A DNA stretch of 36,533 nucleotides from a virus. The position numbers and the translations under genes are program-made. Below are positions 50-31,501 of the stretch, piece after piece (positions within the stretch are counted from its first letter, which is position 1; each line of letters opens with the position of its first letter). The notes beneath the pieces are model-generated. The model worked only from the letters and a program-made list of their open reading frames with translations, made no database searches and had not been told where the DNA came from. The stretch lies in the UHGV virus genome UHGV-0135234. One strand, 5' to 3'.

Positions 50-700
50 TCATGCTGCACGCTCCCGCCCCTGGTTGTCTGTTGGTGACAGCGGAGCATT
101 GCTGAATGCATTTGTTAATCCGGCAATATCCAACGCGTATCCAGGGTGTAGTTGCACTGCCGGGTCTTCGCACTGATTACCCCAAACATCGAAGCCATGA
201 GACGTCTGGCGGGCGAACAGTTCAATGCGAGAAACATCGCCTAACAATTGCACAAGTTTTTCACGAACAATATCTGGTTTTCTTGAATGCTCAAGCCGCG
301 GTGCGGTAAATGACTGAACGATCCCTGCATTAATGCGCGTAGGTAGTTTTCCCTTTACTGCAAACAGGCAATCTTCACTATTGGCGCGAGTCATGTGTCC
401 CATACCCATAACCAGTTTATCTGGTTGTCGACTACCACATTTTATCCACGTGAAGCCCTTCATGGTCATCAGACGGAATCCCCAGGCTTCAACAACTTTT
501 AGTGCTTCGAGTGGTTGTGTTGGCACCCACCACATGGCCAACAGACAGTTTTCATCGGCCAAATCCCACACAGGAAGGCGGCAGATATCCAGCACACTCA
601 TAACCGGATATTTAAAACCGGCACCGCGATTACCATCTGCGGCTTTGTCCCGGTATACCCAGGGTGGATCTGCATAGATTAGTGTGTATTTCTTAGTCAT
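50..700 (-). CDS. DNA N6-adenine methyltransferase (MT-A70/Dam-like, orphan)
   Basis: ORF 50..712; first ATG at 700 preceded by GGGGTGG SD (712 is GTG). DPPW catalytic motif near N-terminus (YADPPWVY). No adjacent restriction endonuclease gene. Confidence 0.8.
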   Translation of the reverse strand: MTKKYTLIYADPPWVYRDKAADGNRGAGFKYPVMSVLDICRLPVWDLADENCLLAMWWVPTQPLEALKVVEAWGFRLMTMKGFTWIKCGSRQPDKLVMGMGHMTRANSEDCLFAVKGKLPTRINAGIVQSFTAPRLEHSRKPDIVREKLVQLLGDVSRIELFARQTSHGFDVWGNQCEDPAVQLHPGYALDIAGLTNAFSNAPLSPTDNQGRERAA

Positions 701-2341: not shown

Positions 2342-3159
2342 ATGTACATATCCTGTTTGCGTGCCCACTCATGGCGTTTAATGATTTCCACACCGCCCCA
2401 TTCATCATTGATGCGGCATTCGTGATAGGTATTCAGATCCCGGCGGAACAGAGCGTGCCCGGCATCGACATCCTGCGCATCCAGCTCGAACACGCGTACC
2501 GGATAGCGACCACAATCAATGCTTTCGCTCACGGCAAGAAAGAAAAAACCATGCGGCTGACCAGTAACCCTCATTGCGCCTTCGCGGTACATTGCGTCCT
2601 GCACGTGGTAGCGGAATTCCTCGATGTGGCGTGCAAAACGGTCCATATCTGCAACCTTTTTCACGTCGACGATCACGTTGTGCTCGTTCAGCCATTTGTC
2701 TGGACGAATTCGGCACAACTCACCCGTCTCTTCATCGTTCCAGTACATTGATGCTTCGCAGTAACCAGGTGCTTCCAACATCCAGCGTGCCGCCGGATGA
2801 GCCATTGCGCTATCACGCATCAGCTCCAGTTTCCGCCACTGCTCGGCATCAAGTACCGTAATCCCCATATCCGCCACATCACGAAGAAATGCCTCTTCGT
2901 CAGCTTTACCTTGTTTCGTCCGACGATCGAATTTCGGTGAAACAATGAAGCGTTTGTCGAACTCTCCAGGCTCCAGAAGCAGACAGTGCAATGCGGTTCC
3001 CATATCCAGTGCAGACTTTTTCTCTTCGTCTTCTGGTGCTGCCTGAACCCATTTAAGAAGCGCCGGATTCTTGGCAACCATGTCCAGTTGCGACTTACTC
3101 ACGCCGTCACCGGCGTGGTAGTCTTCGTTGCTGATGTCGAAATAAATTCCCGGTTTCAT
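2338..3159 (-). CDS. RecE-like exonuclease (PD-(D/E)XK, exodeoxyribonuclease VIII C-terminal-type domain)
   Basis: 273 aa, immediately upstream of and translationally coupled to recT; resembles the short RecE nuclease-domain proteins of lambdoid and Rac-like prophages. Confidence 0.75.
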   Translation of the reverse strand: MKPGIYFDISNEDYHAGDGVSKSQLDMVAKNPALLKWVQAAPEDEEKKSALDMGTALHCLLLEPGEFDKRFIVSPKFDRRTKQGKADEEAFLRDVADMGITVLDAEQWRKLELMRDSAMAHPAARWMLEAPGYCEASMYWNDEETGELCRIRPDKWLNEHNVIVDVKKVADMDRFARHIEEFRYHVQDAMYREGAMRVTGQPHGFFFLAVSESIDCGRYPVRVFELDAQDVDAGHALFRRDLNTYHECRINDEWGGVEIIKRHEWARKQDMYI

Positions 3160-3629: not shown

Positions 3630-3644
3630 TTACCGTTGAGGTAA
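3630..3644. promoter_or_regulatory. operator palindrome TTACC-N5-GGTAA (OL-proximal)
   Basis: ttaccgttgaggtaa; overlaps predicted -10/+1 of leftward promoter. Confidence 0.6.
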
Positions 3645-12036: not shown

Positions 12037-12417
12037 TTATTGCTCGCTTAGCTTCTGCTTCAGCAAGTAACCTTCGAGCATCCAGATTTTGTTTACAGCA
12101 TTCTGCCGGGCAATCTTCCGACCAATTTCTGCATCAAAGTTTTCCGGGCTTGCACAGGCGCTCTCTCCGGTGACGGTGAAGCCATTCTTCAGCACCAGTA
12201 CGCAGAAAGTGAGCAACTTCAATGGTGATAAATCACGATCGCCTTCTTCTGGTTTTTCCCTGCCACAATATTCGTTGCTGGAAATGGCACCATTACGTCC
12301 ATCATAAGCAGTAAAGTAATGCTCGCTTTTAATCACGTCTTCGATGTGCTGCGGAGTGATTCTCGGAGCGGTTTTGCCTTTCTCAACGATTTCTTTTTCG
12401 ATTTGCTGGTCGTTCAT
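12037..12417 (-). CDS. Gp49-like phage protein (unknown function)
   Basis: 126 aa; AAGGTG SD; reverse-oriented inside late region; conserved block LTFCVLVLKNGFTVTGESACASPENFDAEIGRKIA. Confidence 0.55.
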   Translation of the reverse strand: MNDQQIEKEIVEKGKTAPRITPQHIEDVIKSEHYFTAYDGRNGAISSNEYCGREKPEEGDRDLSPLKLLTFCVLVLKNGFTVTGESACASPENFDAEIGRKIARQNAVNKIWMLEGYLLKQKLSEQ

Positions 12418-12615
12418 AATCTCACCTTAAAAAAATGCCCGGCGAACCGGGCGAACTGGAAGCAATGAGTTATGCCTTCCGTGGCTGTACGGGTTTACAG
12501 CATGAAGTCATCGCAATGGCGTCCTGCTGTAAAAAGGGCGGTGATAGTCCTTCAAGGGAAACCATCACCGCCAAGCACCTGGAACTTCTGGCATCACGGT
12601 CCTTAGGCGTGATTC

Positions 12616-12692
12616 TGGCGTGGCATGCAGGATTCGAACCTGCGACCAACCGCTTAGAAGGCGGTTGCTCTGTCCAACTGAGCTAATGCCAC
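12616..12692 (-). tRNA. tRNA-Arg (anticodon UCU)
   Basis: 77 nt GTGGCATTAGCTCAGTTGGACAGAGCAACCGCCTTCTAAGCGGTTGGTCGCAGGTTCGAATCCTGCATGCCACGCCA; 7-bp acceptor stem, D-arm GCTC/GAGC, anticodon loop CTTCTAA, T-loop TTCGAAT, encoded CCA. Confidence 0.9.
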
Positions 12693-13021
12693 AACGCTGA
12701 GAGCACTGGTTTGGCTCGATATCAGGTAGGGTGGAACAGCCCGCTAATATCCAATGCTCTCATCGTTGTACCCTCGTCTCTTCCGAGGCGTCACACCGAA
12801 TCGCCGGGATGGTGAATCCCCGTGCGCGGAATAAAACCGCTCGACTTGCACATTCCGGCTACCTGGTTCGTTTGCCCGAGCAAGGGAGGGTGCCCCTTAA
12901 ACGTATCCAGACCGCTATCGGCGCATGTGCCATACGCCGTACTGCTCAAAATAAAAGCTCACTCCACCTGTTCAATTTAACGACAAGCCAGTCAGGTTAG
13001 TAACCGGAATGAACTCTTTGG

Positions 13022-13036
13022 TTACCTGAAAGGTAA
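13022..13036. promoter_or_regulatory. operator palindrome TTACC-N5-GGTAA upstream of head operon
   Basis: ttacctgaaaggtaa. Confidence 0.55.
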
Positions 13037-13126
13037 TAATTTGTGCGTTAAATGTCAACTATCTACGATAAATAAATCATATGTGGTTAAATTGGTAATA
13101 ATTTAATTGCGTACGGAGTCATTGAT

Positions 13127-13333
13127 ATGTGCATGGGTAGCTCACCATCAGTGCCTGCAACACCAGAAGTTCAGGCAGCACCACAGGAGCAGGATGCCGC
13201 CGTTGTTGATGCCCGCGACGAAGAAACTCGTCGCCGTCGCGCTGCTGCTGGTCGTAGTTCTACGCTGCTTACCGGTTCTCAGGGCGACACATCAACCGCT
13301 AATACCAGCGGTAAAACGCTACTTGGTCAGTAA
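13127..13333 (+). CDS. hypothetical small protein preceding portal
   Basis: 68 aa; same initiation context (cggagtcattga + ATG) as the portal gene. Confidence 0.4.
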   Translation: MCMGSSPSVPATPEVQAAPQEQDAAVVDARDEETRRRRAAAGRSSTLLTGSQGDTSTANTSGKTLLGQ

Positions 13334-13347
13334 CCGGAGTCATTGAA

Positions 13348-15027
13348 ATGGCGGAAACAACTAAAGAGCGATTGAACAAACAGTTCGCACAACTTGAAAG
13401 CGAGCGTCAGTCGTTCGAGCCGCACTGGCGCGAGTTGAGTGATTACATCAACCCGCGTGGTTCCCGCTTTCTGACTTCTGAGGTCAACCGTAACGATCGA
13501 CGCAATACACGTATTATTGATTCGACCGGGACTATGGCGGCGCGCACTCTCGCCAGCGGCATGATGTCAGGCATCACAAGCCCCGCGCGTCCGTGGTTTC
13601 GCCTGGCTACGCCAGATCCTGAAATGATGGATTATGGCCCTGTTAAGTTGTGGCTTGAGGCGGTGCAGAACCGCATGAACGATATGTTCAATAAGTCGAA
13701 TCTCTACCAGTCTCTTCCGCAGTTATACGGAAGCCTCGGCACATACAGCACCGGTGCAATGGCGGTACTGGAGGATGACGAGGACATCATTCGCACAATG
13801 CCATTCCCGATAGGCAGTTACTACCTGGCTAACTCACCTCGTGGCAGTGTGGACACCTGTTTTCGCAAGTTCTCTATGACTGTTCGTCAGCTTGTTCAGG
13901 AGTTCGGGCTAAATAACGTCAGCGAATCTGTAAAAAGCATGTGGGAAAGCGGCACCTACGAGAAGTGGATTGAAGTGATGCATTCGGTTTACCCGAACAT
14001 TGACCGCGATACATCGAAGCTGGATAGCAAGAACAAGCCATTCAAATCGGTTTATTACGAGGTTGGCGGCGATAACGACAAGTTGTTGCGTGAGTCCGGA
14101 TTCGATGAGTTTCCAATTATGGCTCCGCGCTGGGAAGTTAACGGCGAAGATGTTTATGGATCATCGTGCCCGGGTATGCTGGCGCTTGGACCTGTTAAGG
14201 CATTGCAGCTTCTCCAGAAGCGCAAGTCGCAGTTGATTGATAAAGCCACCAATCCGCCGATGGTTGCTCCGACTTCCCTCAAGAATCAGCGCGCCTCCCT
14301 TCTTCCTGGCGACATCACGTATATCGATCAGATTACTGGTCAGGATGGCTTCAGGCCTGCTTATCTGGTTAACCCCAGTACAGCAGATTTGGTGGCAGAC
14401 ATTCAGGACACTCGTCAAATCATTAACAGCGCCTACTTTGTCGATCTGTTCATGATGTTGCAGAACATCAATACCCGCTCGATGCCTGTTGAAGCGGTGA
14501 TCGAAATGAAAGAAGAAAAACTTCTGATGTTGGGGCCGGTTCTGGAGCGTCTGAACGACGAATGTCTTAATCCTCTCATTGACCGCGCTTTCTCGATGAT
14601 GGTGCGTAAAAACATGCTGCCGCCACCGCCTGACGCGATGGAAGGCATGCCCCTGAAGGTCGAATACATTTCCGTCATGGCTCAGGCGCAGAAGTCTATC
14701 GGCCTGTCCAGTCTGGCGTCCACGGTTAACTTCATTGGTCAACTTGCGCAAGCGAAACCAGAAGCTCTCGACAAACTCAACGTTGATCAGGCGATCGATG
14801 CATTCGCTGATATGTCCGGAGTGTCTCCAACCGTCATTGTTCCGCAGGAACAGGTTGAGCAGGCTCGCCAGCAACGGGCACAGCAGCAACAGCAGCAACA
14901 AATGATGGCGATGGGGATGGCGGCGGCACAGGGTGCCAAGACGCTAAGCGAAGCTAAAACTTCGGATCCGAGTGTTTTGTCAGCTATGGCGAATGCAGTT
15001 AGTGGTCAGGGTGGGCAATCACAATGA
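13348..15027 (+). CDS. portal protein (T7 gp8-like head-to-tail connector)
   Basis: 559 aa; C-terminal Gln/Met/Ala-rich tail (QQRAQQQQQQQMMAMGMAAAQG) like the T7 portal C-terminus; position after terminase. Confidence 0.85.
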   Translation: MAETTKERLNKQFAQLESERQSFEPHWRELSDYINPRGSRFLTSEVNRNDRRNTRIIDSTGTMAARTLASGMMSGITSPARPWFRLATPDPEMMDYGPVKLWLEAVQNRMNDMFNKSNLYQSLPQLYGSLGTYSTGAMAVLEDDEDIIRTMPFPIGSYYLANSPRGSVDTCFRKFSMTVRQLVQEFGLNNVSESVKSMWESGTYEKWIEVMHSVYPNIDRDTSKLDSKNKPFKSVYYEVGGDNDKLLRESGFDEFPIMAPRWEVNGEDVYGSSCPGMLALGPVKALQLLQKRKSQLIDKATNPPMVAPTSLKNQRASLLPGDITYIDQITGQDGFRPAYLVNPSTADLVADIQDTRQIINSAYFVDLFMMLQNINTRSMPVEAVIEMKEEKLLMLGPVLERLNDECLNPLIDRAFSMMVRKNMLPPPPDAMEGMPLKVEYISVMAQAQKSIGLSSLASTVNFIGQLAQAKPEALDKLNVDQAIDAFADMSGVSPTVIVPQEQVEQARQQRAQQQQQQQMMAMGMAAAQGAKTLSEAKTSDPSVLSAMANAVSGQGGQSQ

Positions 15028-31235: not shown

Positions 31236-31388
31236 AGTGATCACCTTTGTAGTTAGGTTAATCACCACTACCGACGCCAATCGGTTGGTGGTGAACTGTG
31301 CAGGGTTGGCGTAACCGGCTACAAAGGACCCGGCGCACCTTTCGGTGCCCCCACACAGCCCACCATAGAATAGGTGCGCTTTACACAT

Positions 31389-31408
31389 AAAAAAACCGCT
31401 TATGCGGC
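31389..31408 (-). terminator. intrinsic terminator/attenuator in Bro leader
   Basis: Minus strand gccgc-ataa-gcggu followed by seven U. Confidence 0.45.
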
Positions 31409-31501
31409 ATATGTGCCTCTGTAGTAACCCGGGACGCCAATCCCGGCACTGGATTTTGCCAGTGCCCGATTACTATGGCACAAGAGGAGTGCGATGTAAA
31501 T

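Follow-up and report, generated by a model that had tools for sequence, protein, structure and literature searches.

A copy of a widespread, modular RNA family was identified between a tRNA gene and the head operon of virus genome UHGV-0135234, a sequence of 36,533 nucleotides that is referred to in its entirety as the window. The window is a Uetakevirus prophage, of the phiV10/epsilon15 type. Positions 12693..13126 had been described in an initial annotation as a gap of about 430 bp without a convincing open reading frame (ORF), which might hold the tRNA promoter, a small RNA or the remnant of a lost gene. The gap is real but occupied, by a predicted promoter, an operator and one copy of the RNA family, and the RNA is structured and very probably transcribed leftward. 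The gap starts where it had been placed because tRNA-Arg(UCU) occupies 12616..12692 on the minus strand, and every item described in it is present at the coordinates given for it.

The conserved core of the RNA is pseudoknotted and 176 nt in length, and it is followed by a long helix (P6) that encloses an exchangeable cassette and adjoins the tRNA (Table 1). The structure of the core was proposed using the minus strand of 26 diverse copies, in which conserved blocks are separated by variable hairpins. In this first alignment 98.1% of the cells form standard pairs, and changes on both sides are found for 10 of the 29 pairs. Only 30–46% of the cells were paired in controls with slid partners, and the covariation score was reached in none of 500 shuffles. 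The pseudoknot also covaries, from CACC/GGUG to AACC/GGUU in the cdtI-type copies. About 90 of the 753 paired cells (~12%) are G-U pairs, which would be A-C mismatches on the other strand, and the minus strand is therefore the one that folds. The single-stranded stretches GGAAUGUGCAAG and GGCGAUNCGGUGUGAC and the loops UUCACCA and GAAGAGA are invariant within the core.

A second set of copies was collected separately, using a different search pattern, and was not used in building the covariance model. It comprised 20 copies from genome assemblies and four viral-contig variants, to which two distant variants and a remnant in epsilon15 were added. When these 27 matches were aligned to the model, 98.4% of the cells were paired and 13 of the 25 pairs had double changes, counts that lean towards the model because the alignment was fitted to its structure. 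Taken over both sets, the slid controls pair at 29–46%. The 24 non-training copies score 125–164 bits, and the two distant variants and the epsilon15 remnant score 40–46 bits. The model finds a single match in the window, the next best having a score of 6.9 bits. Two further pairings are not claimed as part of the structure. A P3 helix (GUGC with GCAC) is present in most but not all types, and the pairing of the P1 loop (GCACAU with AUGUGC) involves invariant bases and is broken in one variant.

Table 1. Features of the RNA locus and the adjoining leftward unit, in window coordinates.
Feature	Position	Strand	Details
38-nt block	13069..13106		minus strand TTAAATTATTACCAATTTAACCACATATGATTTATTTA; invariant in six related phages with diverged flanks; contains TATGTGG
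-35 hexamer TTGACA, leftward promoter	13053..13058	-	perfect; read from sequence; invariant in six relatives
-10 candidate TACCTT	13030..13035	-	17 nt from the -35 hexamer; inside the operator; keeps A2 and T6 of TATAAT
Palindromic operator	13022..13036		TTACCTGAAAGGTAA; one of 12 exact TTACC-N5-GGTAA copies in the window
5' leader of leftward transcript	12942..13021	-	by-eye comparison with BUCT708-type sequences
RNA core, 176 nt, pseudoknotted	12766..12941	-	covariance model R1, 149 bits, E = 8e-45
P1	12939..12919	-	9-bp hairpin, GCA loop
P2	12914..12856	-	CGGUCUG with CAG-GUA-GCCG around a variable insert; family: CGGU-CYG with CRG-GUA-GCCG
P4	12820..12806	-	4 bp, loop UUCACCA (family YUMACCA)
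Pseudoknot	12814..12811 with 12797..12794	-	P4 loop with GGUG
P5	12788..12772	-	5 bp, loop GAAGAGA
P6	12690..12770 (5' strand 12770..12751, 3' strand 12709..12690)	-	helix of ~20 bp; helix search
Cassette, 41 nt	12750..12710	-	enclosed by P6
tRNA-Arg (anticodon UCU)	12616..12692	-	ARAGORN; Rfam tRNA 73.3 bits; co-oriented with and abutting P6
Hairpin AUCACG...CGUGAU after the tRNA	12593..12613	-	sequence comparison; common to BUCT708-type leaders
Intrinsic-terminator-like hairpin and U tract	12537..12572	-	consensus scan
Second intrinsic terminator	12437..12452	-	GCCCGGUUCGCCGGGC and U7; consensus scan; abuts the ribosome-binding site of the downstream gene; also conserved among relatives
Phage_gp49_66 family gene	12037..12417	-	downstream in the same leftward unit; Pfam PF13876, E = 3.4e-35

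The GC-rich hairpins that had been noted earlier are real, and the one that was quoted, cgtctcttccgaggcg (12775..12790), is helix P5. They are not isolated features of the plus strand, however, and their strand, extent and family had been missed. Likewise, the suggestion of a small RNA stands as far as an RNA is concerned, on the minus strand and with covariation, but the molecule is neither small nor simple, with a core of ~176 nt and a cassette hairpin of ~80 nt.

The interval is non-coding and far from random. A conserved reading frame was sought among the homologues of 12693..13126 by frame comparison, and none was found; searches of Pfam and PHROG returned no match. The ORF at 12731..13000 (plus strand, 89 aa) had been judged non-coding, and this judgement is borne out by the lack of a Pfam or PHROG match and by a frame that is not kept in the relatives. 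Most of the indels and length differences that separate the homologues are not divisible by 3. The ORF that lies over the homologous DNA in cdtI switches frame half-way, and its segment LHIPATWFVCP matches a different ORF of the window, 12822..12980. The comparison with related phages that had been recommended revealed no conserved protein-coding gene at the locus, and no gene is annotated over 12693..13126 in any of the related records inspected. The suggestion of a remnant of a lost protein gene finds no support, as no frame is conserved and 98% of the predicted base pairs are kept.

The RNA family matched no Rfam family and no searchable paper. The covariance-model search that the initial annotation had proposed was conducted with Rfam 15 on the whole window at gathering scores, and it returned only the tRNA in the interval. 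When E values up to 10 were admitted for 12400..13200, no family was matched on the minus strand over the core or P6, and two low-scoring matches appeared on the plus strand at 12896..13034 and 12971..13033. Only tRNA, C4, isrK and int-alpA were obtained from Rfam for 18 related loci. No description was found by full-text search of the literature on characteristic sequences, on put/HK639-type antiterminators and on the RNAs of P1 ban/trnI. Phage-borne structured RNAs located beside tRNA genes or interleaved with them include GOLLD, ROOL and the T4 species 1 and 2 RNAs; these are known from different hosts or groups of phages, and at ~600–800 nt GOLLD and ROOL greatly exceed the present RNA in length. 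Their context beside tRNAs is alike, and Rfam gave no family match here. RNase P RNA was considered for its shared short motifs (GUGCAAC..GAGAGCA, GGGUAG and UGGCAC) but rejected, since an nhmmer profile search against E. coli rnpB gave nothing and BLAST gave chance 6–8-mers. No reverse transcriptase that would indicate a retron is listed among the genes annotated beside the element in twelve phages; no scan of the window itself was aimed at one.

The distribution of the family was determined by sequence searches. Positions 12400..13350 are 95–99% identical to phiV10, TL-2011b, EC.W1-9 and related phages in a DNA search. In a more sensitive DNA search, 12753..12940 is ~79% identical to unannotated DNA in very different phages. 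The core lies unannotated between trnI and ban in P1, P7, D6, SJ46 and RCS47, and it occupies the pL leader, between cI and the first early-left gene, in the lambdoid phages cdtI, mEp460, 2H10 and several Stx2 phages. It is also found in phages of Klebsiella, Enterobacter and Salmonella. A total of 103 deposited phage records contain the core, including P1, P7, D6, SJ46, cdtI, mEp460, Stx2 phages, phiV10 and SPN1S, and the invariant 19-mer GGTAGCCGGAATGTGCAAG is present in more than 120 IMG/VR viral contigs among the matches listed. Further variants were recovered using a second, degenerate sequence pattern. Of 5426 complete E. coli genomes, 1840 contain the core, in every case without annotation. 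Among species-representative genome assemblies it appears in 20. Enterobacterales account for 19 of these (Kosakonia, Phytobacter, Citrobacter, Kluyvera, Klebsiella, Enterobacter, Erwinia, Pseudescherichia and others), and the remaining one, a contig of 1.8 kb, bears the label of a Bacillota metagenome-assembled genome. Each phage record compared has one copy, and none has a copy at pR. Lambda, the control, has no copy in its pL or late leaders. The distant variants are found in the late leader, with a terminator and the lysis genes directly beyond them. The element is accessory, because epsilon15 keeps only a truncated core remnant and no tRNA.

The modules that flank the core are exchanged between phages. 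No fewer than six versions of the P6 sequence preserve the pairing; the evidence is a list of these versions, as the helix registers differ among types. In the window, the final 3 nt of P6 coincide with the first 3 nt of tRNA-Arg. The cassettes range in length from 4 to 170 nt. Those of phiV10 and the window are completely different within flanks that are 96–99% identical, and the phiV10 cassette is that of cdtI and mEp460. The cassette of the window is found again in the Klebsiella phages ZX1, RCIP0103, ZX4 and BUCT610. In RCIP0103 it is enclosed by a different P6, and its inner stem has compensatory changes with identical loops. The conserved loops of the cassette are CUGUUCCA and CGAGCCAAA.

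A tRNA gene lies within a few hundred bases of 51 of the 144 distinct copies and is always on the same strand (51 vs 0). It is tRNA-Arg(UCU) downstream of the core in 30 copies and a CAU tRNA upstream in 19. In P1, 14 nt separate tRNA-Ile from the start of the core, and a CAU tRNA stands directly upstream in P1, in its relatives and in the distant late-leader variant. In copies without a tRNA the same slot is filled by a cloverleaf-like domain, GUUGUGGUGAAU-GCGCAGGCUGAUGCGC-[variable]-GCCGGAGAUCAGCACCGGCCACCACAAC, the ends of which form a 9-bp helix; the SopranoGao version folds as a cloverleaf. The RNA unit as a whole is in many cases succeeded by a strong terminator of its own. P6, a cassette and a cloverleaf domain are also found without the core in the early leaders of LLS (L173, 31900..32200, minus strand) and RCIP0103 (L012, 2390..2580, minus strand). 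The tRNA finders called none of the cores, cassettes and cloverleaf-like slot domains, and the only tRNA is the one at 12616..12692. The identification of the cassettes themselves as tRNAs was also rejected; T-arm-like motifs such as GGUUCGAUUCC are present, but ARAGORN and Rfam call none.

Several individual modules have unusual features. The cassettes of L003 and L007 contain the T-arm-like hairpins CUGGUUCAAUUCCAG and GUCCGUUCGAUUCGGAC, and a 74-nt cassette in L108 resembles a tRNA with a 5-nt anticodon loop, which the tRNA finders do not call. In L151 the tRNA model matches 126 nt directly after P6 (1116..1241, plus strand, 39.9 bits), possibly a tRNA with a long insertion. Tandem P6-type cassette hairpins, with two CAAC...GUUG units and then a cloverleaf domain, are located downstream of the core in L136 and L160, which suggests arrays of RNA cassettes. 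The modules of the LLS leader are followed by a conserved GCUGUGUGUAGUCUUUGCC motif and a terminator; the same ending appears in BUCT708-type units, and a variant form of it in the late-leader unit L148.

The suggestion that the gap holds the promoter of the tRNA is supported by sequence. A perfect TTGACA at 13058..13053 is followed after 17 nt by TACCTT, which lies within the operator, and together these imply a putative repressor-controlled start of leftward transcription near 13023. The invariance of TTGACA was found by alignment and includes phiV10, SPN9TCW, a Klebsiella phage, epsilon15 and Tyrion. The operator at 13022..13036 had been correctly recognized, and its counterpart in the epsilon15 record is marked as a repressor site. 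With up to two mismatches, 38 copies of TTACC-N5-GGTAA are present in the window compared with 10 expected, a number reached in none of 100 shuffles. These scattered operator-like palindromes recall the dispersed C1 operators of P1; across the whole prophage they are found at 3630, 3692, 4404, 6735, 6797, 9846, 13022, 30462, 31502, 31882 and other positions. The leader that precedes the core varies among related phages in content and in length (24 nt in SPN9TCW and ~190 nt in epsilon15). That of the window bears a weak resemblance to a degenerate BUCT708-type P6/cassette unit with a boxA-like GAGCUUUUA after it.

The TATGTGG element that had been singled out near 13080 is present, but it is not repeated elsewhere in the window above chance and neither is the invariant 38-nt block that contains it. 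This block lies between the divergent promoter and the start of the head operon, and it probably belongs to the control region for rightward transcription of that operon. An integration host factor (IHF) site is annotated in epsilon15 near the equivalent of the block.

The reading that is favored for the RNA, with a confidence just short of even, is a discrete molecule that is excised by tRNA-processing enzymes and acts in trans; no particular function is held with greater confidence than this. Upon departure of the repressor from the operator, leftward transcription from near 13023 would produce, in order, a short leader, the core, P6 with its cassette, and tRNA-Arg(UCU). Cleavage by RNase P at the 5' end of the tRNA would yield an RNA of ~330 nt (of which the core and P6 make up ~250 nt) with a 3' end protected by P6, and RNase III may also cleave the long P6 helix. 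For copies with an upstream tRNA, processing at the 3' end of that tRNA would free the RNA. The freed RNA may then bind a conserved host or phage component through the invariant single-stranded stretches of the core, with the cassette supplying a second, variable specificity. This reading is favored from the same-strand association with tRNAs, the exact junctions, the tRNA-like domain that replaces the tRNA, the terminal helix, the terminator that many copies have of their own and the exchange of conserved, structured cassettes. Maturation by RNase P could also be proposed from analogy with the P1/P7 C4 RNA, the P4 CI RNA and MALAT1-mascRNA: here too an RNA precedes a tRNA or cloverleaf-like domain, at which its 3' end might be set. 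No similarity to C4 RNA is seen in the core, and the Rfam model of C4 (RF01695) matches elsewhere in the window.

A number of observations count against this reading. Repressor-controlled early promoters lie 30–80 nt before the core, and terminators and genes on its own strand lie beyond it, an arrangement that suits a cis-acting leader equally well. The core of phage P1 has no P6, and a 3' end set by P6 or RNase P is thus not universal. A search of the rest of the window for an antisense target of the cassette or the core gave only chance-level matches of up to 11 nt. The folding energy of the single sequence is modestly better than that of shuffled sequences (z = -1.8). Finally, the leftward promoter was not called in a consensus scan, because its -10 hexamer matches at only 3 of 6 positions.

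The position of the core suggests an alternative function as a cis-acting leader for processive antitermination, comparable to HK022 put or to the rrn and lambda boxA systems. The core, a boxA-like sequence in or after P6 and the Nus factors would make RNA polymerase resistant to Rho and to intrinsic terminators, and long untranslated tRNA and leader transcripts would reach the Tad2-family gene of the window (12037..12417), ban in P1 and the early-left genes of N-less lambdoid phages. The cdtI core lies beyond the cI terminator, at the position of putL or nutL, and begins ~30 nt downstream of a pL-type promoter (TTGACA, 17 nt, ATAATG) that has an operator-like palindrome. In the window it starts ~80 nt after the operator-controlled promoter, and two terminators precede the next gene. 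The late-leader position of the distant variants, directly ahead of a terminator and the lysis genes, is in keeping with this function. As in HK022 (putL and putR), the phage RNA is just downstream of repressor-controlled early promoters in N-less lambdoid phages, and the cdtI/mEp460-type core occupies the putL position at pL with none at pR. HK022 put is an RNA of ~70 nt with two stem-loops and a triplex (PMC9378689). The core differs in having 150–180 nt, helices P1, P2, P4 and P5, a pseudoknot, a cassette hairpin and links to tRNAs; it is not visibly related, being set apart by size and architecture and not by sequence alignment. It is also found outside early leaders, in the P1 ban operon, in late leaders and in Uetakevirus.

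The boxA signals provide evidence of both kinds. The boxA core GCTCTT[TA] occurs within 300 nt downstream of the RNA core in 48 of 130 copies, which is ~6 times the background and ~20 times the upstream rate, and L093 carries a perfect rrn-type boxA, TGCTCTTTAACAA. The rrn and lambda nut leaders thus share with these loci the enrichment of GCUCUU(U/A) just 3' of the core, in some cases as a perfect rrn boxA, as well as a hairpin adjoining the motif and a long untranslated RNA or tRNA transcript. The loci differ in that a boxA is lacking or poor in the majority of copies, the window among them; the 3' strand of P6 is in most cases GCUCUCAGC, which resembles boxA poorly and is base-paired within P6. 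Nothing in nut or rrn leaders corresponds to the large core, and no N-like protein is present. In cdtI the first ORF downstream has no Pfam match and no arginine-rich motif was seen in it. A lambda-type nut site was therefore rejected for the window and for cdtI, as the boxA-like stretch of the former is poor and paired and the first downstream ORF of the latter matches only PHROG families of unknown function.

A 2025 survey notes that lambdoid phages of the LLS type lack an N homologue, and its authors speculate about a put-like RNA (PMC12315714). The core is missing from LLS, however, the leader of which has only P6, a cloverleaf domain and terminators, and the core therefore cannot be a general substitute for N. 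Intrinsic terminators are found downstream of the core in 48 of 105 loci, no more often than upstream or on the opposite strand. With one core copy per phage, the rightward operon would be uncovered. Known RNA antiterminators are smaller and need neither an exchangeable cassette nor a flanking tRNA (put, ~70 nt; PMC9378689), and the cassettes and tRNAs are left unexplained. Antitermination is considered rather unlikely, although it is the main rival of the favored reading.

The size of the core, its pseudoknot and its many invariant unpaired nucleotides resemble those of large aptamers, and the core is found in 5' leaders ahead of terminators. If it were a riboswitch- or attenuator-type leader, binding of a metabolite, a second messenger, a tRNA or a protein would determine how much transcription passes the downstream terminators and would tie early phage expression to the state of the host. 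Mutually exclusive pairings are possible, of AUGUGC with the GCACAU of helix P1 and of GUUG with an upstream CAAC or a downstream CCACAAC. These alternatives lack support from covariation because the bases are invariant, and the AUGUGC/GCACAU pairing is broken without compensation in L150 (AAUAUGC). No alternative between a terminator and an anti-terminator is conserved beside the core, and the sequence after the core differs widely, being P6, a plain hairpin or, in P1, nothing. The P1 core is also in the middle of an operon, after a tRNA. A sensing leader is regarded as quite improbable.

The exchange of cassettes and tRNAs between otherwise diverged elements at conserved junctions could also be explained at the level of DNA. 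The CAAC...GUUG stems would serve as homology or recognition sites for the swapping of cassettes and tRNA genes between phages, as a linker for mosaic exchange or a folded single-strand site, and the RNA itself would be without function. There is a loose resemblance between the junctions and the core sites of integron attC, which are RYYYAAC and GTTRRRY, and some cassettes include sequences that resemble a tRNA 3' half, a frequent feature of attachment sites. The compensatory changes, the 12% of G-U pairs and the strict co-orientation of the tRNAs indicate instead a transcribed RNA. A 176-nt core is not needed for homology at junctions, and yet its loops are conserved to the nucleotide. Identification of the junctions (GYRCAAC and GUUGUGG) as attC was rejected, as each misses the consensus at 1–2 positions, the cassettes have no ORFs, and neither an integron integrase nor another recombinase stands beside the element in any of the annotated neighborhoods. 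This explanation is thought very improbable.

A more far-reaching version of the favored discrete RNA is viewed as unlikely. The element may represent a new class of modular phage RNA, in which the pseudoknotted core serves as a chassis with slots for P6-cassettes and for tRNAs or cloverleaf domains, and which disables or redirects a conserved machine of the host. Release by tRNA-processing enzymes would take place in the first minutes after induction or infection. Candidate targets would include tRNA-targeting or RNA-sensing defense and the transcription or translation apparatus, and the cassettes, being exchangeable, would confer specificity under the pressure of an arms race.

If real, a large RNA supported by covariation has gone unnoticed in some of the best-studied phages, including P1, the Shiga-toxin prophages and the prophages of about one-third of sequenced E. 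coli. It should be among the first molecules made because it stands at the start of early operons and inside phage tRNA clusters. A function in antitermination would bear on how N-less lambdoid phages pass their early terminators, and a discrete RNA on why phages carry tRNA islands and on what else these islands encode. P1, phiV10, SPN1S and mEp460 are laboratory phages, which makes the question directly testable. Existing records would also be corrected, as several phage records put hypothetical proteins over the RNA and the tRNA.

The gap is flanked by the large terminase gene and a small leftward gene on one side and by the portal gene on the other. A homologue of the 12037..12417 gene in a Klebsiella phage is annotated as DUF2829, a domain that is contained in Tad2, an anti-defense protein (sponge) against Thoeris (bioRxiv 10.1101/2023.05.01.538930). 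The sole annotation near the gap in the phiV10 record is an ORF that overlaps the tRNA. An 83-aa ORF at 12435..12686 (plus strand) is recorded as a hypothetical protein in phiV10 (PhiV10p04) and TL-2011b. It is probably a spurious annotation because it overlaps the tRNA and two terminators of the opposite strand and has no family match.

Other small elements were found in the window and the related phages. A C4 antisense RNA at 31284..31370 (minus strand, 79.5 bits) adjoins an isrK RNA at 31389..31465 (minus strand, 74.7 bits). The pair is an RNA immunity module in the style of P1/P7 within a Uetakevirus-like prophage, and the same pair is present in Stx2a_WGPS2 (L007, 4793..4981). In Tyrion (L014) an int-alpA RNA (RF02996, 44 bits) is located at 450..514 on the minus strand, ~1 kb downstream of the element in the same leftward gene cluster. 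In P1 (L005, ~2400..2500, minus strand) a 14-codon ORF with a good Shine-Dalgarno sequence lies between the core and ban, and translational coupling is suggested because its stop codon overlaps the start of ban (TAATG).

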